DNA from: Escherichia coli
Lineage (GTDB): Bacteria > Pseudomonadota > Gammaproteobacteria > Enterobacterales > Enterobacteriaceae
Length of the DNA: 64,000 bases
Direction: 5' to 3' (one strand)
NCBI RefSeq assembly: GCF_024700885.2
Contig: NZ_CP117016.1
Position 1 is the stretch's first letter, and the number at the start of each line of letters is the position of its first letter. The position numbers and the translations under genes are program-made. The notes beneath the pieces were generated by a model. The model was not told where the DNA came from. It ran no database searches and saw only the letters and a program-made list of their open reading frames with translations. Shown one piece after another: positions 3,980-17,075 of the stretch.

Positions 3980-4062
3980 CTGTAGGCCAGATAAGACGCG
4001 TCAGCGTCGCATCTGGCATTTGCACTGAATGCCAGATGCGGCGTAAACGCCTTATCCGTCCT
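3980..4062. repeat. REP (repetitive extragenic palindromic) elements between convergent rcsB and rcsC
   Basis: GCCTGATGCGACGCT / GCCGGATGCGGCGTAAACGCCTTATCCG-type palindromic units; yields the typical spurious MPDATL ORF in the track. Confidence 0.7.
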
Positions 4063-6910
4063 ACGAATCCCGCGATTTCCTGACCCTCTCGGCATATACC
4101 GTTAGCGTCTGTTTTATCACATCCAGCGTTACCGGCTTCGACAGGCAGCTGTCCATACCAGACTCCAGACACCGCTGCTTCTCTTCAGCCAACGCATTAG
4201 CAGTTACTCCGATTACCGGCAACGTCAGTCCCAACTGACGAATGCGTTGCGTCAAGCGGTAACCATCCATATTTGGCATGTTGACGTCGCTAAGCACGAT
4301 ATCAATATGATTCTTGCTAAGTACATTAAGCGCATCGACGCCATCATTCGCGGTTTTACATTGATAGCCCAACGATCCCAACTGATCTGCCAGAAGACGC
4401 CGGTTAATCGGATGATCATCCACAACCAGAATCATCATATCGTCGTTATCGCTGACCGCTTTGTCCGTCGACGGCAGAGCGTTAGCAGGATCATCGCTCT
4501 CCATCTCGATCAAATAAATACGCGCCAACAATGCCGGTAGCTCATGCGGGGCAGCCACACTGTGTACCCACTCCCCTGGCGCTTTCTCCAGCGGAATACC
4601 AATATGGCGACGACAGAAGGTCACTACCGCTCTACCCTGCCATTTTTTGCTCACTACCTCGTCAGTGATTAACACATCTTCGGGAGTCGGTTCCTGCCCT
4701 TCGTATGTTGTAACGACGATGCCGCTGCGCTGCAAACTGGTTTCCAGGAACTGACAGAGCGACGCATTGCGGACCGCCAGCCAGCAGCGTTTACCACTCA
4801 ACCCTTCCACGCCTTTTTTCTGCGGGTACTGAGCGCCGTACAACGGAATACGCACGGTAAACTGGCTGCCCATTCCCGGTTCTGAATCTACCGAGATGTC
4901 GCCGTCCATCATGCTGATCAGTTTTTCACAAATCGCCAGCCCCAGACCGGTCCCCTGGAAGTTACGCTGTACGCCCGTTCCGACCTGGAAGAAGGGATCA
5001 AACAAGCGCACCACTTCTTTCGCCGGAATCCCCACTCCGGTATCGCGAACGCGGATAGAGAGATAATCGCCATCAGCGCGAACATGCAAAACTATACAGC
5101 CGGTATCGGTGAATTTTATGGCGTTACTCAACAGGTTGGAGATGACCTGCTGTAAACGCATCGGGTCGCCATTTAAGGCCACTGGCACATCCGGTTCAAT
5201 AAAGCAGTACAAGCCTAGCTGCTTGCGTACCACCAGCGGTAAATAGTTGGCGGTGATGTGGTTCATCACTTCACGCGGTGAAAACTCACGCGGTTCGATC
5301 TTCAACTGTTCTGATTCAATTTTCGAGAAATCGAGAATATCGCTGATAATTTTCAACAACAGGCTGGAAGAGTTATTCATTGCCGTCACCAGCCGATCGA
5401 CGCCTTTCGGTAACTCTTTGGTTTGCAACAGATCCAGGTTACCGATAATGCCATACAGCGGCGTTCGCAGCTCATGACTGACGGTGGCAAGGAACATCGA
5501 TTTTGACTGGCTCGCCTGTTCCGCTGCTTGTGCCATCTCCTGCAACGACTCTTCCATCTTCACGCGCGAAGAAACATCCACCAGCACACAAATGGCCACG
5601 TTTTCATTACGATAGCGCGAATGGACGAAGCTGATTTGCAGATTGGTATTGTTGCTGGTCAGGACATCAACAAAATTGACCTGCTGCCCACAGATAATTT
5701 GTGTCAGCCGTTGGCGATCCTCATGCGTAAGCATATTGAGATAGGTATGCGCCAGTTCGTTACTTAAAATATTGACGCCATCAGCGGTACGCAAAATGCA
5801 GATACCCACTGGCGCGGAGGCGACAATCTTGCGATTAAACTGCTCATGTTCTTCCAGTCGCAGGGCGTCGCTTTCCGCCGGAATGAAAATACGTCGCTCG
5901 TACATCCGCGCGAGAGTAAACAATGCAGCTCCGGCAAGCACATTCAGCAAAATTGCGTTAAGGATCAACATGCGAATGCGTTCCAGCACCTTATCAACCG
6001 GCACCGAATACACGATGCTTAGCGATGAGGGTGGCAGATTTTTCTTCAGCACCAGCTCCCGGAACCCTTCCGTATAGCCAAACCAGGAGCGTTCCTGCAT
6101 CCAGCGAGGATCGCCCTTAATTTTGCTTTCTGGTCCGGTAAGCGAAATCAGGGTATGACCATTTTCATCAAGAATGGTAACCCCCATCGGCAACGTACCA
6201 GGTAAGAAAAAGTTCTCCATCCGGATGGTCTGCTCGACACCCAAAAGCGCCTGCAACCGGTTCGCCAGATAAACTGGCGTCAACGCGTAAAAATACCCGA
6301 CGCCAGGGCGCGGACCTTCGCTGATCCAGTAGAGGTTACTGCCGCTATCGTCTTGTGGTGCATTTCGATATTTATTGATGCGTTCATGCAAAGCTTTCAA
6401 CGCGGTATCGCGTTCCACTGGCATATCACGCAGACCGAAATTGGCCATGCAAAGGTTATCGCTGCCGATTAAAAATACCCGGTTGAGATCGTAAGCCGCA
6501 GAGAAATTATCGCGCCAGTAGCGCATAAACCACACCAATGACTCCAGAGAGCCTCGCCAGGTGTTACTCATTGCGGAACAATCGGAGTCGGCAAACAGCG
6601 GTTCAAACGCAGGCACATCCGCCTGCGTTTCTCGTCCACGCGGGGAAAGCACACCGTTTTCTGCCGATAAGCGATTTTCAGCTATGTACTTCAGCTCTTT
6701 CATCACATCAGAGGTACGTTGAATAAAGCGCTGAGCCTGATCGGAACTCAGATTAAATTCCTGACGAATTTCCGATTCTCGCTGATGTAACGCATTCACG
6801 ATGTAAAAAACGGATGAAAAAGCAATCAACAGCCAGAGCACTAACGCCAATGCTCGGAACATGTAGCGCGAGGCTTTCAGGGTTGTACGAAAAGAAGCAA
6901 GGTATTTCAA
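4061..6910 (-). CDS. rcsC: Hybrid sensor histidine kinase RcsC, 949 aa
   Basis: 949-aa ORF starting MKYLASFRTTLKASRYMF; start codon on the minus strand is TTG (6910-6908); histidine kinase H-box (SHELRTPL) and C-terminal receiver domain visible. Confidence 0.93.
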   Translation of the reverse strand: MKYLASFRTTLKASRYMFRALALVLWLLIAFSSVFYIVNALHQRESEIRQEFNLSSDQAQRFIQRTSDVMKELKYIAENRLSAENGVLSPRGRETQADVPAFEPLFADSDCSAMSNTWRGSLESLVWFMRYWRDNFSAAYDLNRVFLIGSDNLCMANFGLRDMPVERDTALKALHERINKYRNAPQDDSGSNLYWISEGPRPGVGYFYALTPVYLANRLQALLGVEQTIRMENFFLPGTLPMGVTILDENGHTLISLTGPESKIKGDPRWMQERSWFGYTEGFRELVLKKNLPPSSLSIVYSVPVDKVLERIRMLILNAILLNVLAGAALFTLARMYERRIFIPAESDALRLEEHEQFNRKIVASAPVGICILRTADGVNILSNELAHTYLNMLTHEDRQRLTQIICGQQVNFVDVLTSNNTNLQISFVHSRYRNENVAICVLVDVSSRVKMEESLQEMAQAAEQASQSKSMFLATVSHELRTPLYGIIGNLDLLQTKELPKGVDRLVTAMNNSSSLLLKIISDILDFSKIESEQLKIEPREFSPREVMNHITANYLPLVVRKQLGLYCFIEPDVPVALNGDPMRLQQVISNLLSNAIKFTDTGCIVLHVRADGDYLSIRVRDTGVGIPAKEVVRLFDPFFQVGTGVQRNFQGTGLGLAICEKLISMMDGDISVDSEPGMGSQFTVRIPLYGAQYPQKKGVEGLSGKRCWLAVRNASLCQFLETSLQRSGIVVTTYEGQEPTPEDVLITDEVVSKKWQGRAVVTFCRRHIGIPLEKAPGEWVHSVAAPHELPALLARIYLIEMESDDPANALPSTDKAVSDNDDMMILVVDDHPINRRLLADQLGSLGYQCKTANDGVDALNVLSKNHIDIVLSDVNMPNMDGYRLTQRIRQLGLTLPVIGVTANALAEEKQRCLESGMDSCLSKPVTLDVIKQTLTVYAERVRKSRDS

Positions 6911-7076: not shown

Positions 7077-8903
7077 ATGCATTATATGAAGTGGATTTAT
7101 CCACGCCGCTTACGCAATCAAATGATCCTGATGGCAATCCTGATGGTCATTGTCCCAACGCTTACTATTGGTTATATCGTAGAAACGGAAGGACGTTCAG
7201 CAGTCTTATCTGAAAAAGAGAAAAAACTTTCTGCCGTGGTCAACCTGCTTAATCAGGCACTAGGCGATCGCTATGATCTCTACATCGACTTACCACGTGA
7301 GGAGCGTATCCGCGCATTAAATGCAGAACTTGCCCCCATTACCGAAAATATCACTCACGCCTTCCCTGGCATCGGCGCTGGTTATTACAACAAAACGCTG
7401 GATGCGATAATCACCTACGCGCCTTCAGCGCTATATCAGAATAATGTCGGCGTTACCATTGCCGCAGATCACCCTGGTCGCGAAGTCATGCGTACAAATA
7501 CCCCTTTGGTTTATTCAGGCAGGCAGGTGCGCGGCGATATTTTGAATTCAATGATCCCCATTGAGCGTAATGGTGAAATCCTCGGCTATATCTGGGCCAA
7601 TGAATTAACCGAAGATATTCGCCGCCAGGCCTGGAAAATGGATGTGAGGATTATCATTGTGCTCACCGCCGGTTTGCTGATAAGCCTGCTGTTGATTGTC
7701 CTTTTCTCCCGTCGCCTGAGCGCCAATATTGATATCATCACCGATGGCCTCTCGACTCTGGCGCAAAATATTCCCACTCGATTACCACAATTGCCCGGTG
7801 AAATGGGGCAAATCAGTCAGAGTGTTAACAACCTCGCCCAGGCACTGCGTGAAACGCGGACACTTAACGATCTGATTATTGAAAACGCTGCCGATGGCGT
7901 CATTGCCATTGACCGCCAGGGTGATGTAACCACCATGAACCCGGCAGCAGAAGTCATCACTGGCTATCAACGTCATGAACTGGTAGGGCAGCCTTACTCC
8001 ATGTTGTTCGACAATACTCAGTTCTACAGTCCAGTACTGGATACGCTGGAACATGGCACCGAACATGTAGCGCTGGAGATCAGTTTTCCAGGCCGTGACC
8101 GCACCATTGAACTCAGTGTCACTACCAGTCGTATTCATAACACGCATGGTGAAATGATAGGTGCTTTGGTGATTTTCTCTGATTTAACTGCCCGCAAAGA
8201 AACCCAGCGCCGCATGGCGCAAGCAGAACGCCTCGCCACACTGGGTGAGCTGATGGCTGGCGTCGCGCATGAAGTACGTAATCCGCTAACGGCTATTCGT
8301 GGTTATGTACAGATCTTGCGCCAACAAACCGGTGACCCAATACATCAGGAATATCTGTCCGTAGTACTCAAAGAAATCGATTCAATTAACAAAGTTATTC
8401 AGCAATTGCTCGAATTTTCACGTCCACGCCACAGTCAATGGCAACAAGTCAGCCTCAATGCATTGGTTGAAGAAACTCTGGTACTGGTACAAACCGCTGG
8501 CGTACAAGCGCGGATCGACTTCATAAGCGAACTGGATAATGAATTAAGCCCGATTAACGCCGATCGTGAACTGCTCAAACAGGTACTACTGAATATCCTG
8601 ATCAATGCCGTCCAGGCTATCAGTGCACGAGGGAAAATTCGCATTCGAACCTGGCAGTACAGCGACTCACAACAGGCCATTTCGATAGAGGACAACGGCT
8701 GTGGCATTGATCTCTCGCTGCAAAAAAAGATCTTCGATCCCTTTTTCACTACCAAAGCCTCAGGAACCGGGCTTGGTCTGGCGTTAAGTCAACGCATCAT
8801 TAATGCCCATCAGGGTGATATTCGCGTCGCCAGTTTGCCGGGCTACGGCGCAACCTTCACGCTTATTTTACCGATCAACCCGCAGGGAAATCAGACTGTA
8901 TGA
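7077..8903 (+). CDS. atoS: Sensor histidine kinase AtoS, 608 aa
   Basis: ATG at 7077 (MHYMKWIYPRRLRNQ...); HAMP/PAS region and H-box (AHEVRNPLTAI); overlaps the atoC start. Confidence 0.9.
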   Translation: MHYMKWIYPRRLRNQMILMAILMVIVPTLTIGYIVETEGRSAVLSEKEKKLSAVVNLLNQALGDRYDLYIDLPREERIRALNAELAPITENITHAFPGIGAGYYNKTLDAIITYAPSALYQNNVGVTIAADHPGREVMRTNTPLVYSGRQVRGDILNSMIPIERNGEILGYIWANELTEDIRRQAWKMDVRIIIVLTAGLLISLLLIVLFSRRLSANIDIITDGLSTLAQNIPTRLPQLPGEMGQISQSVNNLAQALRETRTLNDLIIENAADGVIAIDRQGDVTTMNPAAEVITGYQRHELVGQPYSMLFDNTQFYSPVLDTLEHGTEHVALEISFPGRDRTIELSVTTSRIHNTHGEMIGALVIFSDLTARKETQRRMAQAERLATLGELMAGVAHEVRNPLTAIRGYVQILRQQTGDPIHQEYLSVVLKEIDSINKVIQQLLEFSRPRHSQWQQVSLNALVEETLVLVQTAGVQARIDFISELDNELSPINADRELLKQVLLNILINAVQAISARGKIRIRTWQYSDSQQAISIEDNGCGIDLSLQKKIFDPFFTTKASGTGLGLALSQRIINAHQGDIRVASLPGYGATFTLILPINPQGNQTV

Positions 8904-10285
8904 CTGCTATTAATCGCATCCTTATTGTGGATGATGAAGATAATGTTCGCCGTATGCTGAGCACCGCTTTTGCACTACAAGGATTCGAAACACATTGTGC
9001 GAACAACGGGCGCACAGCATTACACCTGTTTGCCGATATTCACCCTGACGTGGTGTTGATGGATATCCGCATGCCAGAGATGGACGGCATCAAGACACTA
9101 AAGGAGATGCGCAGCCATGAGACACGGACACCCGTTATTCTGATGACGGCCTATGCTGAAGTGGAAACCGCCGTCGAAGCACTACGCTGCGGAGCCTTCG
9201 ACTATGTTATCAAACCGTTTGATCTCGATGAGTTGAATTTAATCGTTCAGCGCGCTTTACAACTCCAGTCAATGAAAAAAGAGATCCGTCATCTGCACCA
9301 GGCACTGAGCACCAGCTGGCAATGGGGGCACATTCTCACCAACAGCCCGGCGATGATGGACATCTGCAAAGACACCGCCAAAATTGCCCTTTCTCAGGCC
9401 AGCGTCTTGATTAGCGGTGAAAGCGGCACCGGGAAAGAGTTGATTGCCAGAGCGATTCACTACAATTCGCGGCGGGCAAAGGGGCCGTTCATTAAAGTCA
9501 ACTGCGCGGCGCTGCCGGAATCGTTGCTCGAAAGTGAACTGTTTGGTCATGAAAAAGGGGCATTTACTGGTGCACAAACCTTGCGTCAGGGATTATTTGA
9601 ACGTGCCAACGAAGGTACTCTGCTCCTCGACGAAATTGGCGAAATGCCGCTGGTACTGCAAGCCAAATTACTACGCATTCTGCAGGAACGGGAATTTGAA
9701 CGGATTGGCGGCCATCAGACCATAAAAGTTGATATCCGCATCATTGCTGCCACCAACCGCGACTTGCAGGCAATGGTGAAAGAAGGCACCTTCCGTGAAG
9801 ATCTCTTTTATCGCCTTAACGTTATTCATTTAATACTGCCGCCTCTGCGCGATCGCCGGGAAGATATTTCCCTGTTAGCTAATCACTTTTTGCAAAAATT
9901 CAGTAGTGAGAATCAGCGCGATATTATCGACATCGATCCGATGGCAATGTCACTGCTTACCGCCTGGTCATGGCCGGGAAATATTCGAGAGCTTTCCAAC
10001 GTTATTGAACGCGCCGTCGTGATGAATTCAGGCCCGATCATTTTTTCTGAGGATCTTCCGCCGCAGATTCGTCAGCCAGTCTGTAATGCTGGCGAGGTAA
10101 AAACATCCCCTGTCGGAGAGCGTAATTTAAAAGAGGAAATTAAACGCGTCGAAAAACGCATCATTATGGAAGTGCTGGAACAACAAGAAGGAAACCGAAC
10201 CCGCACTGCTTTAATGCTGGGCATCAGTCGCCGTGCATTGATGTATAAACTCCAGGAATACGGTATCGATCCGGCGGATGTATAA
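8900..10285 (+). CDS. atoC: Sigma-54-dependent response regulator AtoC, 461 aa
   Basis: Receiver domain, AAA+ sigma-54 activator core (GESGTGKE, GAFTGA motif) and C-terminal HTH; ATG at 8900 overlaps the atoS stop. Confidence 0.92.
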   Translation: MTAINRILIVDDEDNVRRMLSTAFALQGFETHCANNGRTALHLFADIHPDVVLMDIRMPEMDGIKTLKEMRSHETRTPVILMTAYAEVETAVEALRCGAFDYVIKPFDLDELNLIVQRALQLQSMKKEIRHLHQALSTSWQWGHILTNSPAMMDICKDTAKIALSQASVLISGESGTGKELIARAIHYNSRRAKGPFIKVNCAALPESLLESELFGHEKGAFTGAQTLRQGLFERANEGTLLLDEIGEMPLVLQAKLLRILQEREFERIGGHQTIKVDIRIIAATNRDLQAMVKEGTFREDLFYRLNVIHLILPPLRDRREDISLLANHFLQKFSSENQRDIIDIDPMAMSLLTAWSWPGNIRELSNVIERAVVMNSGPIIFSEDLPPQIRQPVCNAGEVKTSPVGERNLKEEIKRVEKRIIMEVLEQQEGNRTRTALMLGISRRALMYKLQEYGIDPADV

Positions 10286-10296
10286 CGCCAAAACTT

Positions 10297-10337
10297 GCTA
10301 TGCAGAAATTTGCACAGTGCGCAATTTTCTGCATAGC
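10297..10337 (+). promoter_or_regulatory. AtoC upstream activating site: 20-bp inverted repeat pair
   Basis: GCTATGCAGAAATTTGCACA-GTGCGCAATTTTCTGCATAGC is a near-perfect palindrome about 100 bp upstream of the sigma-54 promoter. Confidence 0.6.
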
Positions 10338-10419
10338 CGCTCATTCTCCTTATAAATCCCCATCCAATTTATCCCTTCATATTCAATTAGTTAAATAACA
10401 ACATTCAATAATCTCATTC

Positions 10420-10435
10420 TGGCACTCCCCTTGCT
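10420..10435 (+). promoter_or_regulatory. Sigma-54 (-24/-12) promoter of atoDAEB
   Basis: TGGCAC-N5-TTGCT with GG-to-GC spacing matching the RpoN consensus, 45 bp upstream of the atoD ATG. Confidence 0.6.
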
Positions 10436-10480
10436 ATTCCCTGACTGTACCCACAACGGTGTATGCAAGAGGGATAAAAA

Positions 10481-11143
10481 ATGAAAACAAAATTGATGAC
10501 ATTACAAGACGCCACCGGCTTCTTTCGTGACGGCATGACCATCATGGTGGGCGGATTTATGGGGATTGGCACTCCATCCCGCCTGGTTGAAGCATTACTG
10601 GAATCTGGTGTTCGCGACCTGACATTGATAGCCAATGATACCGCGTTTGTTGATACTGGCATCGGTCCGCTCATCGTCAATGGTCGAGTCCGCAAAGTGA
10701 TTGCTTCACATATCGGCACCAACCCGGAAACAGGTCGGCGCATGATATCTGGTGAGATGGACGTCGTTCTGGTGCCGCAAGGTACGCTAATCGAGCAAAT
10801 TCGCTGTGGTGGAGCTGGACTTGGTGGTTTTCTCACCCCAACGGGTGTCGGCACCGTCGTAGAGGAAGGCAAACAGACACTGACACTCGACGGTAAAACC
10901 TGGCTGCTCGAACGCCCACTGCGCGCCGACCTGGCGCTAATTCGCGCTCATCGTTGCGACACACTTGGCAACCTGACCTATCACCTTAGCGCCCGCAACT
11001 TTAACCCCCTGATAGCCCTTGCGGCTGATATCACGCTGGTAGAGCCAGATGAACTGGTCGAAACCGGCGAGCTGCAACCTGACCATATTGTCACCCCTGG
11101 TGCCGTTATCGACCACATCATCGTTTCACAGGAGAGCAAATAA
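10481..11143 (+). CDS. atoD: Acetate/acetoacetate CoA-transferase alpha subunit AtoD, 220 aa
   Basis: 220-aa [29 protein letters not shown]; operon context. Confidence 0.9.
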
Positions 11144-11793
11144 TGGATGCGAAACAACGTATTGCGCGCCGTGTGGCGCAAGAGCTTCGTGATGGTGACA
11201 TCGTTAACTTAGGGATCGGTTTACCCACAATGGTCGCCAATTATTTACCGGAGGGTATTCATATCACTCTGCAATCGGAAAACGGCTTCCTCGGTTTAGG
11301 CCCGGTCACGACAGCGCATCCAGATCTGGTGAACGCTGGCGGGCAACCGTGCGGTGTTTTACCCGGTGCAGCCATGTTTGATAGCGCCATGTCATTTGCG
11401 CTAATCCGCGGCGGTCATATTGATGCCTGCGTGCTCGGCGGTTTGCAAGTAGACGAAGAAGCAAACCTCGCGAACTGGGTAGTGCCTGGGAAAATGGTGC
11501 CCGGTATGGGTGGCGCGATGGATCTGGTGACCGGGTCGCGCAAAGTGATCATCGCCATGGAACATTGTGCCAAAGATGGTTCAGCAAAAATTTTGCGCCG
11601 CTGCACCATGCCACTCACTGCGCAACATGCGGTGCATATGCTGGTTACTGAACTGGCTGTCTTTCGTTTTATTGACGGCAAAATGTGGCTCACCGAAATT
11701 GCCGACGGGTGTGATTTAGCCACCGTGCGTGCCAAAACCGAAGCTCGGTTTGAAGTCGCCGCCGATCTGAATACGCAACGGGGTGATTTATGA
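11143..11793 (+). CDS. atoA: Acetate/acetoacetate CoA-transferase beta subunit AtoA, 216 aa
   Basis: 216-aa [31 protein letters not shown]; start overlaps the atoD stop. Confidence 0.9.
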   Translation: MDAKQRIARRVAQELRDGDIVNLGIGLPTMVANYLPEGIHITLQSENGFLGLGPVTTAHPDLVNAGGQPCGVLPGAAMFDSAMSFALIRGGHIDACVLGGLQVDEEANLANWVVPGKMVPGMGGAMDLVTGSRKVIIAMEHCAKDGSAKILRRCTMPLTAQHAVHMLVTELAVFRFIDGKMWLTEIADGCDLATVRAKTEARFEVAADLNTQRGDL

Positions 11794-13112
11794 TTGGTCG
11801 CATATCGCGTTTTATGACGCGTTTTGTCAGCCGGTGGCTTCCCGATCCACTGATCTTTGCCATGTTGCTGACATTGCTAACTTTCGTGATCGCGCTTTGG
11901 TTAACACCACAAACGCCGATCAGCATGGTGAAAATGTGGGGTGACGGTTTCTGGAACTTGCTGGCGTTTGGTATGCAGATGGCGCTTATCATCGTTACCG
12001 GTCATGCCCTTGCCAGCTCTGCTCCGGTAAAAAGTTTGCTGCGTACTGCCGCCTCCGCCGCAAAGACGCCCGTACAGGGCGTCATGCTGGTTACTTTCTT
12101 CGGTTCAGTCGCTTGTGTCATCAACTGGGGATTTGGTTTGGTTGTCGGCGCAATGTTTGCCCGTGAAGTCGCCCGCCGAGTACCCGGTTCTGATTATCCG
12201 TTGCTCATTGCCTGCGCCTACATTGGTTTTCTCACCTGGGGTGGCGGTTTCTCTGGCTCAATGCCTCTGTTGGCTGCAACACCGGGCAACCCGGTTGAGC
12301 ATATCGCCGGGCTGATCCCGGTGGGCGATACTCTGTTCAGTGGTTTTAACATTTTCATCACTGTGGCGTTGATTGTGGTGATGCCATTTATCACCCGCAT
12401 GATGATGCCAAAACCGTCTGACGTGGTGAGTATCGATCCGAAACTACTCATGGAAGAGGCTGATTTCCAAAAGCAGCTACCGAAAGATGCCCCACCATCC
12501 GAGCGACTGGAAGAAAGCCGCATTCTGACGTTGATCATCGGCGCACTCGGTATCGCTTACCTTGCGATGTACTTCAGCGAACATGGCTTCAACATCACCA
12601 TCAATACCGTCAACCTGATGTTTATGATTGCGGGTCTGCTGCTACATAAAACGCCAATGGCTTATATGCGTGCTATCAGCGCGGCAGCACGCAGTACTGC
12701 CGGTATTCTAGTGCAATTCCCCTTCTACGCTGGGATCCAACTGATGATGGAGCATTCCGGTCTGGGCGGACTCATTACCGAATTCTTCATCAATGTTGCG
12801 AACAAAGACACCTTCCCGGTAATGACCTTTTTTAGTTCTGCACTGATTAACTTCGCCGTTCCGTCTGGCGGCGGTCACTGGGTTATTCAGGGACCTTTCG
12901 TGATACCCGCAGCCCAGGCGCTGGGCGCTGATCTTGGTAAATCGGTAATGGCGATCGCCTACGGCGAGCAATGGATGAACATGGCACAACCATTCTGGGC
13001 GCTGCCAGCACTGGCAATCGCCGGACTCGGTGTCCGCGACATCATGGGCTATTGCATCACTGCCCTGCTCTTCTCCGGCGTCATTTTCGTCATTGGTTTA
13101 ACGCTGTTCTGA
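11790..13112 (+). CDS. atoE: Short-chain fatty acid transporter AtoE, 440 aa
   Basis: 440-aa polytopic membrane protein; start overlaps the atoA stop. Confidence 0.9.
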   Translation: MIGRISRFMTRFVSRWLPDPLIFAMLLTLLTFVIALWLTPQTPISMVKMWGDGFWNLLAFGMQMALIIVTGHALASSAPVKSLLRTAASAAKTPVQGVMLVTFFGSVACVINWGFGLVVGAMFAREVARRVPGSDYPLLIACAYIGFLTWGGGFSGSMPLLAATPGNPVEHIAGLIPVGDTLFSGFNIFITVALIVVMPFITRMMMPKPSDVVSIDPKLLMEEADFQKQLPKDAPPSERLEESRILTLIIGALGIAYLAMYFSEHGFNITINTVNLMFMIAGLLLHKTPMAYMRAISAAARSTAGILVQFPFYAGIQLMMEHSGLGGLITEFFINVANKDTFPVMTFFSSALINFAVPSGGGHWVIQGPFVIPAAQALGADLGKSVMAIAYGEQWMNMAQPFWALPALAIAGLGVRDIMGYCITALLFSGVIFVIGLTLF

Positions 13113-13142
13113 CGGCAACCCTACAGACAGAAGGAATAAAAA

Positions 13143-14327
13143 ATGAAAAATTGTGTCATCGTCAGTGCGGTACGTACTGCTATCGGTAGTTTTAACGGTT
13201 CACTCGCTTCCACCAGCGCCATCGACCTGGGGGCGACAGTAATTAAAGCCGCCATTGAACGTGCAAAAATCGATTCACTACACATTGATGAAGTGATTAT
13301 GGGTAACGTGTTGCAAGCCGGGTTGGGGCAAAATCCGGCACGTCAGGCACTGTTAAAAAGCGGGCTGGCAGAAACGGTGTGCGGATTCACGGTCAATAAA
13401 GTGTGTGGTTCGGGTCTTAAAAGTGTGGCGCTTGCCGCCCAGGCAATTCAGGCAGGTCAGGCGCAAAGCATTGTGGCGGGGGGTATGGAAAATATGAGTT
13501 TAGCGCCCTACTTACTCGATGCAAAAGCACGCTCTGGTTATCGTCTTGGAGACGGACAGGTTTATGACGTAATCCTGCGCGATGGTCTGATGTGCGCCAC
13601 CCATGGTTATCATATGGGGATTACCGCCGAGAACGTGGCCAAAGAGTACGGAATTACCCGAGAAATGCAGGATGAACTGGCGCTACATTCACAGCGTAAA
13701 GCGGCAGCCGCAATTGAGTCCGGTGCTTTTACAGCCGAAATCGTCCCGGTAAATGTTGTCACTCGGAAGAAAACCTTCGTCTTCAGTCAAGACGAATTCC
13801 CGAAAGCGGATTCTACGACTGAAGCGTTAGGCGCATTGCGCCCGGCCTTCGATAAAGCAGGAACAGTCACCGCCGGGAACGCGTCTGGTATTAACGACGG
13901 TGCTGCCGCTCTGGTGATTATGGAAGAATCTGCGGCGCTGGCAGCAGGCCTTACCCCCCTGGCTCGCATTAAAAGTTATGCCAGCGGTGGCGTGCCCCCC
14001 GCATTGATGGGTATGGGGCCAGTACCTGCCACGCAAAAAGCGTTACAACTGGCGGGGCTGCAACTGGCGGATATTGATCTCATTGAGGCTAATGAAGCAT
14101 TTGCTGCACAGTTCCTTGCCGTTGGGAAAACCCTGGGCTTTGATTCTGAGAAAGTGAATGTCAACGGCGGGGCCATCGCGCTCGGGCATCCTATCGGTGC
14201 CAGTGGTGCTCGTATTCTGGTCACACTATTACATGCCATGCAGGCACGCGATAAAACGCTGGGGCTGGCAACACTGTGCATTGGTGGCGGCCAGGGAATT
14301 GCGATGGTGATTGAACGGTTGAATTAA
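13143..14327 (+). CDS. atoB: Acetyl-CoA acetyltransferase (thiolase II) AtoB, 394 aa
   Basis: 394-aa [24 protein letters not shown]; thiolase active-site region NKVCGSGLK. Confidence 0.92.
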
Positions 14328-14406
14328 CAAATCAGAACCACTCGCATGGCGGGTGGTTATCTGTTTCAGCCACGATGCGCCAGAAACAGACTAAAGTCAG
14401 AAAAGT

Positions 14407-14431
14407 AAAGGGCCGAATTTTCGGCCCTTTT
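14407..14431. terminator. Bidirectional rho-independent terminator shared by convergent atoB and gyrA
   Basis: Perfect palindrome AAAGGGCCGAA-TT-TTCGGCCCTTT flanked by an A-run on one side and a T-run on the other; 8 bp from the gyrA stop. Confidence 0.7.
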
Positions 14432-14438
14432 AACTTGA

Positions 14439-17075
14439 TTACTCGTCAGCGTCGTCTGCGACATCATCGTCGCTTTCCACTTCCGGAGCGATTTCATCGT
14501 CCCCTTCCGCGGCACTGCCATCGATGGTATCCAGATCTTCCTCGTCAACCGGTTCAGCAACACGTTGCAGACCCACTACGTTTTCATCTTCCGCAGTACG
14601 GATGAGGATCACGCCCTGGGTGTTACGACCTACGATGCTGATTTCCGAAACGCGAGTACGTACCAGCGTACCGGCATCAGTGATCATCATGATCTGGTCG
14701 CAGTCATCTACCTGCACCGCGCCAACCACTAAACCGTTACGTTCGGTAACCTTGATGGAGATAACCCCTTTCGTCGCACGCGACTTAGTCGGGTATTCCG
14801 CCACTGCGGTACGTTTACCATAACCGTTCTGCGTTGCGGTGAGGATTGCGCCATCGCCACGAGGCACGATCAGAGAGACGACTTTATCGCCTTCACCTAA
14901 GCGAATACCGCGAACACCGGTGGTGTTGCAGCCCATCGCACGGACAGAAGACTCTTTAAAGCGCACCACTTTACCTTCGGCGGAGAACAGCATTACTTCA
15001 TCTTCGCCGCTGGTCAGGTCAACGCCGATCAGCTCATCGCCTTCAACCAGTTTGATCGCCACTTTACCGGCGGTACGCAGACGGTTGAATTCGGTGAGGA
15101 CGGTTTTCTTAACAGTACCGTTAGCGGTCGCCATGAAGACTTTCACGCCTTCTTCAAACTCGGTCACCGGCAGGATCGCGGTGATACGTTCGTCCTGCTC
15201 CAGCGGCAGCAGGTTGACAATCGGACGACCGCGCGCGCCACGAGTGGCTTCCGGCAACTGATAGACTTTCATCGAATAGACGCGACCACGGCTGGAGAAG
15301 CACAGAATATGGTCGTGGGTGTTCGCCACCAGCAGTCGGTCAATAAAGTCTTCTTCTTTAATACGTGCGGCAGATTTGCCTTTCCCGCCACGACGCTGCG
15401 CTTCGTATTCAGAAAGCGGCTGATACTTCACGTAGCCCTGGTGAGAGAGCGTCACAACCACATCTTCCTGAGTGATCAGATCTTCCAGGTTGATGTCTGC
15501 GCTGTTGGCGGTGATTTCAGTGCGACGTTTGTCACCGAACTGTTCACGAACCAGTTCCAGCTCTTCGCGGATCACTTCCATCAGACGATCGGCACTGCCA
15601 AGAATACGCAGCAGTTCTGCGATCTGATCCAGCAGCTCTTTATATTCGTCGAGCAGTTTTTCGTGCTCAAGGCCGGTCAGTTTCTGCAAACGCAGATCCA
15701 GAATCGCCTGGGCTTGCTGTTCGGTCAGGTAGTACAGACCGTCACGCACGCCGAACTCTGGCTCCAGCCATTCCGGACGCGCAGCATCATCGCCCGCACG
15801 TTCGAGCATGGCGGCAACGTTGCCCAACTGCCACGGATTAGCAACCAGCGCAGTTTTCGCTTCTGCAGGCGTCGGCGCATGACGGATCAGTTCGATGATC
15901 GGGTCGATGTTCGCCAGCGCCACGGCTAATGCTTCAAGGATATGAGCACGATCGCGAGCTTTACGCAGTTCGAAAATAGTACGACGGGTCACCACTTCAC
16001 GGCGGTGACGAACAAACGCCGCGATGATGTCTTTCAGGTTCATGATCTTCGGCTGACCATGGTGCAATGCCACCATGTTGATACCGAAAGAAACCTGCAA
16101 CTGGGTCTGGGAGTAGAGGTTGTTAAGCACAACTTCACCGACCGCATCGCGTTTCACTTCAATCACGATGCGCATACCGTCTTTGTCAGACTCGTCACGC
16201 AGCGCGCTGATGCCTTCCACGCGTTTTTCTTTTACCAGTTCCGCAATCTTCTCGATCAGGCGCGCTTTGTTCACCTGATACGGAATTTCGTGGACGATAA
16301 TGGTTTCACGTCCGGTTTTGGCGTCAACTTCCACTTCAGCACGGGCGCGGATATATACCTTGCCGCGACCGGTACGGTAAGCTTCTTCAATACCGCGACG
16401 ACCATTAATGATTGCCGCCGTCGGGAAGTCCGGCCCAGGAATGTGTTCCATCAGCCCTTCAATGCTGATGTCTTCATCATCGATATACGCCAGACAACCG
16501 TTGATGACTTCCGTCAGGTTGTGCGGCGGGATGTTGGTTGCCATACCTACGGCGATACCGGAAGAACCGTTCACCAGCAGGTTAGGAATTTTGGTTGGCA
16601 TGACGTCGGGAATTTTTTCCGTGCCGTCATAGTTATCAACGAAATCGACCGTCTCTTTTTCGAGATCGGCCATCAGTTCATGGGCAATTTTCGCCAGACG
16701 GATTTCCGTATAACGCATTGCCGCCGCAGAGTCGCCGTCGATGGAACCGAAGTTACCCTGACCGTCTACCAGCATGTAACGCAGCGAGAATGGCTGCGCC
16801 ATACGGACGATCGTGTCATAAACCGCCAAGTCACCATGGGGATGGTATTTACCGATTACGTCACCAACGACACGGGCAGATTTTTTATAGGCTTTGTTCC
16901 AGTCATTGCCTAGTACGTTCATGGCGTAAAGTACGCGACGGTGTACCGGCTTCAGGCCATCTCGGACATCTGGCAGCGCACGGCCAACAATGACCGACAT
17001 CGCATAATCCAGATAGGAGCTCTTCAGCTCTTCCTCAATGTTGACCGGTGTAATTTCTCTCGCAAGGTCGCTCAT
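14439..17075 (-). CDS. gyrA: DNA gyrase subunit A, 878 aa, carrying Ser83Leu (quinolone-resistance-determining region)
   Basis: [21 protein letters not shown]...; residues 80-87 read HGDLAVYD (wild type HGDSAVYD); codon 83 is TTG at 16829-16827 on the minus strand; Asp87 unchanged. Confidence 0.97.

Follow-up and report, generated by a model that had tools for sequence, protein, structure and literature searches.

The analysed window, a 64,000-nucleotide stretch of Escherichia coli contig NZ_CP117016.1, carries the ato locus between rcsC (4061–6910) and gyrA (14439–17075), both on the minus strand; the layout and the gene names follow the open reading frame map and the RefSeq annotation of E. 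coli strain 1190, a 100%-identical genome. On the plus strand, atoS (7077–8903; HAMP, PAS, HisKA and HATPase_c domains) is followed by atoC (8900–10285), which encodes an NtrC-family sigma-54 enhancer-binding response regulator of 461 aa. The four-gene atoDAEB operon (10481–14327, plus strand) comprises, by domain content and RefSeq annotation, atoD (10481–11143) and atoA (11143–11793), both with a CoA_trans domain, atoE (11790–13112; SCFA_trans domain) and atoB (13143–14327; Thiolase_N/C domains). The 195-bp gap between atoC and atoD houses both a 41-bp dyad and a –24/–12 element.

AtoS, AtoC, AtoD, AtoA, AtoE and AtoB all had their K-12 lengths, no internal stops and zero to five substitutions each relative to K-12, and their domains were as expected. 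AtoS carried five substitutions and no stops, and AtoC carried two, with the wild-type Ile at residue 129. In AtoC, the Response_reg (residues 7–115), Sigma54_activat (145–311; E 1.5e-75), AAA_lid_14 and HTH_8 (415–454) domains were all found, and D55, the Walker A motif GESGTGKE and the GAFTGA loop were visible in the translation. AtoC thus has the full bEBP domain set, including GAFTGA, of a cognate activator of a sigma-54 promoter. These results bear out the original prediction that the ato system is intact in this strain. At the far end of the locus, gyrA directly adjoins atoB in this strain and in strain 1190 (gap 14328–14438), whereas in K-12 a cluster of yfaP, yfaQ and an alpha-2-macroglobulin-family gene (yfaS) sits between atoB and gyrA; this interval is a strain-specific presence/absence polymorphism beside the ato locus.

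A repeat search located the dyad, which belongs to neither strand, at 10297–10337, exactly where a near-perfect inverted repeat had been predicted and with the predicted sequence. Its two 20-nt arms (10297–10316 and 10318–10337) are 90% complementary and have a single unpaired base, G10317, between them, so that the arms of 20 and 21 nt described earlier resolve into 20 + 1 + 20 = 41 bp. The region reads gatgtaTAAcgccaaaactt followed by GCTATGCAGAAATTTGCACA, G, TGCGCAATTTTCTGCATAGC and cgctc, where 10297–10337 corresponds to GCTATGCAGAAATTTGCACA G TGCGCAATTTTCTGCATAGC; the outer heptamers are TATGCAG/CTGCATA and the inner heptamers TTGCACA/TGCGCAA. The dyad begins 11 nt past the atoC stop codon, and 104 bp separate its centre from the GG of the –24 element downstream, in keeping with the predicted distance of about 100 bp. 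We estimate the chance of 18 of 20 complementary positions at fixed spacing at ~1e-9 per position, which is negligible over 64 kb, and the retention of the dyad in other genera rules out a chance origin.

In K-12, a DNase I footprint described by Matta and colleagues in 2007 is said to extend over two 20-bp stretches, from –146 to –107. The arm at 10297–10316 (GCTATGCAGAAATTTGCACA) and the reverse complement of 10318–10337 (GCTATGCAGAAAATTGCGCA) are base for base the K-12 AtoC sites, and their offsets from atoD are the same (10297 = 10481 – 184; 10318 = 10481 – 163). Both K-12 sites upstream of atoD, GCTATGCAGAAATTTGCACA (plus strand, –184 to –165) and GCTATGCAGAAAATTGCGCA (minus strand, –163 to –144), were positive for AtoC binding (PMC3118216, Table 5), which upholds the prediction that the palindrome is an AtoC site. 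In the passages of the same paper that cite Matta et al. (2007), the 40-bp palindrome is described as an experimentally verified AtoC site that governs AtoC binding and acetoacetate inducibility, is bound in vivo (ChIP) and drives sigma-54-dependent expression (PMC3118216). From the identity to the K-12 sites, AtoC is predicted to bind the dyad in this strain as well.

An AtoD scan with one genome per species yielded 80 loci. In 34 of them (L003–L036), an AtoC-like coding match with 70–99% identity to the window AtoC lay directly upstream of atoD; these loci came from Escherichia, Citrobacter, Edwardsiella, Atlantibacter, Raoultella, Serratia, Symbiopectobacterium, Entomohabitans and other Enterobacteriaceae. 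All 34 bore the 41-bp dyad, at –177 to –198 from the ATG, and the AtoC-like match ended 4–21 nt before the dyad in most of them and 42–103 nt before it in Edwardsiella. Two Buttiauxella loci (L043 and L053) had a similar dyad at –199 whose centre was 2 nt long, and Budvicia, Limnobaculum, Leminorella, Yersinia and Photorhabdus carried GTGCACA-CC-TGTGCAA-N4-TTGCAC upstream of a –24/–12 element at –63 to –66. The distance from the dyad centre to the GG fell mainly into two classes, 103–107 bp in one set of genera and 117–119 bp in another, with a lone outlier at 97 bp (Edwardsiella piscicida); the 10–16 bp between the classes is roughly one helical turn, as face-of-helix constraints on looping predict.

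Among 28 distinct dyad sequences, 89.8% of the cells were complementary, and changes had occurred on both arms at 11 of the 20 dyad positions. Double-change cells numbered 46, compared to 17.1 ± 3.1 in shuffles (0 of 500 shuffles reached the observed value), and at most seven were found when the partner was slid by 1–3 columns as a control. Compensatory changes thus preserve the dyad symmetry. The inner heptamers TTGCRCA/TGYGCAA were nearly invariant, which suggests TTGCRCA as the core heptamer for AtoC, and the outer arms varied by genus and co-varied with each other (GCTATGCAG in E. coli, GCCAGGCAA in Atlantibacter, CCTGAGAAGG in Serratia and AACCTGACAAAA in Buttiauxella). The AtoC recognition helix LGISRRALMYKLQEY is the same as in K-12 and invariant across these genera, and the helix that precedes it is variable. 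Since the outer arms differ yet stay complementary while the recognition helix does not change, something else may maintain the 41-bp symmetry. Candidates beyond recognition-helix contacts would be co-evolution with the variable first HTH helix, a cruciform, an RNA hairpin at the atoC stop, or template-switching correction of a quasi-palindrome, and we regard such an additional maintainer as unlikely.

The inner heptamers are themselves asymmetric (10314/10320 in the window; columns 22/28 of the alignment): in 25 of the 28 species, one arm carries TTGCACA and the other the complement of TTGCGCA, and the arm that carries the A flips between genera. By type, 18 of the 28 cells were A/C, six were G/T, one was otherwise non-complementary and three were fully complementary. 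Each 20-bp arm may represent one dimer site of the form TrTGCAr-N4-TTGCACA, and the right-hand site of the Budvicia/Yersinia group is a perfect 18-bp dyad. The two putative dimer sites would be centred 21 bp apart, on one helix face.

Compensatory maintenance of complementarity is also expected of a structured RNA. We considered whether the main role of the palindrome might be that of an RNA hairpin (a terminator or stabiliser) at the 3' end of the atoSC transcript rather than that of a protein-binding site. The palindrome lies only 11 nt past the atoC stop in most species, and as RNA it folds strongly (–23.3 kcal/mol, z = –5.15). However, the stem is not followed by a U tract, and a terminator scan of the plus strand came up empty. 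Neither was there a bias towards G.U pairs: the outer 17 pairs, read on the plus strand, held 19 G.U, 13 A.C and 24 transversion mismatches, and 11 of the 19 G.U cells stemmed from the terminal pair. Furthermore, conservation is highest in the innermost TTGCRCA-N-TGYGCAA, the portion that would form the loop and not the stem of a hairpin, Morganella carries a canonical terminator of its own ahead of the AtoC-like site, and binding of AtoC to the palindrome DNA has been published (PMC3118216). With a strong fold but neither a U tract nor an excess of G.U over A.C, a hairpin or terminator was rejected as the main function and is very unlikely; the dyad is better read as the AtoC upstream activating sequence.

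In the Morganella loci (L040–L044), the canonical intrinsic terminator, with its T run (e.g. AAAAAAACACGGTGAAAAT/AATTTCACCGTGTTTTTTTG), is found at about –252 from atoD, with atoC on one side and, at about –212, a degenerate AtoC-like site on the other. No such terminator was found in E. coli, and read-through from atoSC into atoDAEB may thus differ between genera.

When 21 intergenic regions were aligned, four conserved blocks stood out from a spacer that was otherwise scrambled and could not be aligned: the dyad; ATTCAATnAGTTAA; CTGGCAY-N5-TTGCW-ATTCCC; and, in the 5' UTR, GTACCCA..GG.GTATGC with the Shine-Dalgarno sequence. The second block belongs to an IHF-like site, ATTCAATTAGTTA (10381–10393, plus strand), which has one mismatch to WATCAANNNNTTR and its centre ~34 bp ahead of the –24 GG. 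The IHF pattern gave 69 matches in the window compared to 57 expected, so that the match by itself is not significant; ATTCAATnAGTTAA is, however, the only conserved block of the otherwise diverged spacer in Escherichia, Citrobacter, Edwardsiella and Raoultella. In most cases an A-rich tract comes before it (in Citrobacter, for instance, AAAAATAA), but the window has no such A-richness at that point in E. coli; the Serratia copy is a perfect AATCAACTCGTTG. IHF is reportedly required in K-12, according to the abstract of the 2007 study by Matta and colleagues. A literature search for IHF together with AtoC returned nothing usable.

The third block holds the sigma-54 –24/–12 element, CTGGCACTCCCCTTGCT, at 10419–10435 on the plus strand, with GG at 10421–10422 and GC at 10433–10434. 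A direct read gave tggcac at 10420–10425, tcccc at 10426–10430 and ttgct at 10431–10435, in a region that reads cattcTGGCACtccccTTGCTattcc; the TGGCAC-N5-TTGCT predicted at 10420–10435 was thus correct in both position and letters. This 16-mer, TGGCACTCCCCTTGCT, has zero mismatches to TGGCAC-N5-TTGCW, and its GG and GC are exactly 10 bp apart. The atoD ATG follows the C of the –12 GC at a distance of 47 nt, and the upstream activating sequence, 104 bp upstream of the –24 GG, is within the range of about 80–150 bp for enhancer-dependent promoters. In the 64-kb window, the pattern TGGCACNNNNNTTGCW matched twice, compared to 0.19 matches expected from shuffles. The other match (TGGCACCACGGTTGCT; 59083–59098, plus strand) is antisense within menD; the published sigma-54 ChIP-seq tables that were searched held no site there, only a different one in menH, and the TGGCAC-N5-TTGCT at 59083 is probably a chance match.

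In K-12, the excerpted site table of a sigma-54 ChIP-seq study places site OS21 upstream of atoD, with the motif CTGGCACTCCCCTTGCT and a distance of 35 (Bonocora et al., 2015; PMC4591121), and the 17-mer at 10419–10435 in the window is identical to it. OS21 has a motif score of 9.39 and an adjacent value of 5, among the lower ones in the table excerpt (PMC4591121); we take the value of 5 beside the peak to be the ChIP enrichment, and read the 'C' mark on OS21 in that table as denoting a previously confirmed promoter. In addition, genomic SELEX with RpoN gave a peak in the interval from atoC to atoD (Shimada et al., 2021; PMC8743547). Both datasets agree with the predicted sigma-54 promoter. 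A comparison of 231 bp to MG1655 revealed five differences, at 10287, 10400, 10402, 10405 and 10439, all in the 195-bp intergenic region and all outside the dyad, the IHF-like block and the GG/GC hexamers. Position 10439, between the –12 element and the start, is C here and G in K-12; C is the majority state across species, which makes K-12 the outlier.

Across species, TGGCAY-N5-TTGCW began at –60 to –62 in the loci with the dyad, and the C of the GC was 46–48 nt from the atoD ATG in the 34 species measured. A –24/–12 motif was found at –56 to –66 in about 45 of the 80 loci with atoD homologues, and several Bacillaceae AtoD homologues had a –24/–12 match too. CTGGCA and TTGC were invariant in the 21 aligned species, next to an upstream spacer that could not be aligned, which indicates purifying selection on the core promoter element relative to its flanks. 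This cross-species footprint, in ~35 Enterobacterales species, is independent comparative support for the published sites. The rival view, in which atoDAEB depends on a sigma-70 promoter or on transcripts reading through from atoSC and the TGGCAC-N5-TTGCT is incidental, is scarcely credible. No terminator is detectable between atoC and atoD, which makes some read-through plausible, and the match antisense to menD indicates that the motif can occur with no known function. However, a consensus scan of 10100–10600 found no sigma-70-like promoter (0 compared to 0.9 expected), with no –35/–10 pair in the region, and a sigma-70 promoter was rejected; sigma-54 occupies the –24/–12 motif in vivo in K-12 (table excerpt of PMC4591121), the motif is fixed 46–48 nt from the ATG in about 35 species amid diverged flanks, and the neighbouring regulator AtoC is a sigma-54-specific activator.

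With the C of the GC set at –12, the transcription start of the sigma-54 promoter is predicted at 10446. The K-12 sites at –146 to –107, as reported for the 2007 study by Matta and colleagues, would place +1 at about 10443, and the predicted start is given as 10443–10446 (plus strand). Position 10446 is 35 nt before the ATG, equal to the distance of 35 given for atoD in the excerpted ChIP-seq table (PMC4591121). The 5' UTR would then span 10447–10480 (plus strand), with the block GTACCCACAACGGTGTATGC at 10447–10466 and the Shine-Dalgarno sequence AGAGGGA at 10468–10474. This block, just past the predicted start, is strongly conserved across genera, with the consensus GTACCCA-N4-GG-N-GTATGC. 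The fold of the consensus was weak (–2.0 kcal/mol, with one compensatory pair), and a literature search for atoD together with Spot 42 or other sRNAs found nothing specific. The block could reflect constraints on the start site or the open complex, or could be a site for a post-transcriptional regulator.

Taken together, these results leave us highly confident that the element is the enhancer-dependent sigma-54 promoter of atoDAEB. Its predicted activation by AtoC agrees with the identity of the published K-12 sites, the bEBP domains of AtoC and the conservation across species. The feature is already known, as it has been characterised in K-12 since 2007 and is included in sigma-54 ChIP-seq and gSELEX datasets, and its form here is canonical. 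In the literature on K-12, binding of AtoC to the dyad, occupancy by sigma-54 and inducibility by acetoacetate have been demonstrated on the identical sequence. The strain studied here contributes the presence and exact identity of the elements, intact genes, and the deep conservation of three cis blocks and their spacing.

Activation in this strain would proceed as follows. Sigma-54 RNA polymerase would rest as a closed complex on CTGGCAC-N5-TTGCT (10419–10435). Acetoacetate would be sensed through the AtoS kinase, leading to phosphorylation of AtoC, dimers of which would occupy both 20-bp halves of 10297–10337, probably one dimer per half, ~104 bp or roughly ten helical turns above the –24 element. 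Assembly of AtoC would produce an active AAA+ oligomer, and an IHF-type bend at a putative site around 10381–10393 would bring this oligomer to the polymerase. ATP hydrolysis, coupled through the GAFTGA loop, would then open the promoter, and transcription from a predicted start at ~10443–10446 would run through atoD, atoA, atoE and atoB.

The atoC-atoD intergenic region was present in 3,923 of 5,426 complete E. coli genomes, and the whole 7.3-kb ato locus was matched in 3,931, of which 3,898 had a coverage of 80% or more. The other 1,495 complete genomes (~28%) gave no match to the locus, which is in line with the earlier statement that many E. coli lack it. Two genomes had disruptions: hit H20 (NZ_CP116976.1) aligned to the 361-base promoter query over its first 229 bases only, with the break just before the –24 element, and H23 (NZ_AP027716.1) had an IS1 transposase within the ato locus, so that natural knock-outs of the promoter or locus exist.

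The original prediction had also held that catabolism of both acetoacetate and short-chain fatty acids is probably functional. Wild-type K-12, which has the same inducible system, does not use butyrate unless atoC is constitutive (PMC2965739), and I129S is the constitutive AtoC allele of LS5218 (PMC5699524). Given this requirement in K-12 and the Ile at position 129 here, the safe prediction for this strain is growth on acetoacetate, as expected from the intact system, but not on butyrate or valerate, and only the acetoacetate part of the earlier claim is retained. The strain can be annotated as having an acetoacetate-inducible AtoSC-atoDAEB system with every known cis and trans component intact. 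This bears on the prediction of acetoacetate use, on acetoacetate biosensors and on polyhydroxyalkanoate engineering with the strain or the promoter; the discovery value is small, as the element has already been characterised in K-12.

The closest known system is the K-12 atoDAEB promoter (Matta et al., 2007, J Bacteriol 189:6324; Pilalis et al., 2011, PMC3118216), which is the same element at the same locus. The dyad is identical at 41 of 41 positions, as is the –24/–12 17-mer, and the distances to the atoD ATG are equal (–184 and –61). The differences are the five intergenic SNPs outside the defined elements and, downstream of atoB, the yfaP-yfaQ-alpha-2-macroglobulin cluster of K-12. The paradigm of enhancer-dependent sigma-54 promoters is the NtrC-dependent glnAp2. 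As established knowledge has it, glnAp2 and the ato promoter share a GG-N10-GC core and paired dyads with TGCA-containing half-sites, which lie over 100 bp upstream and serve an NtrC-family response regulator; in both, activation relies on oligomerisation driven by phosphorylation and on ATP hydrolysis. They differ in the signal, which is acetoacetate via AtoS for ato and nitrogen status via NtrB for glnAp2, and in the layout of the sites, since ato has its TTGCRCA/TGYGCAA heptamers in one continuous 41-bp dyad whereas glnAp2 has two separated 17-bp sites; moreover, an IHF-like site is present at ato, while glnAp2 works without IHF. The Salmonella prpBCDE operon (PrpR/IHF/sigma-54), as cited in a passage of PMC2965739, is likewise a catabolic operon for a short-chain acid under the control of a bEBP, IHF and RpoN. 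PrpR, however, is a one-component bEBP; it detects 2-methylcitrate, and its gene is divergently transcribed. AtoC is instead the response regulator of a two-component system, and its gene lies immediately upstream of the operon in the same orientation.
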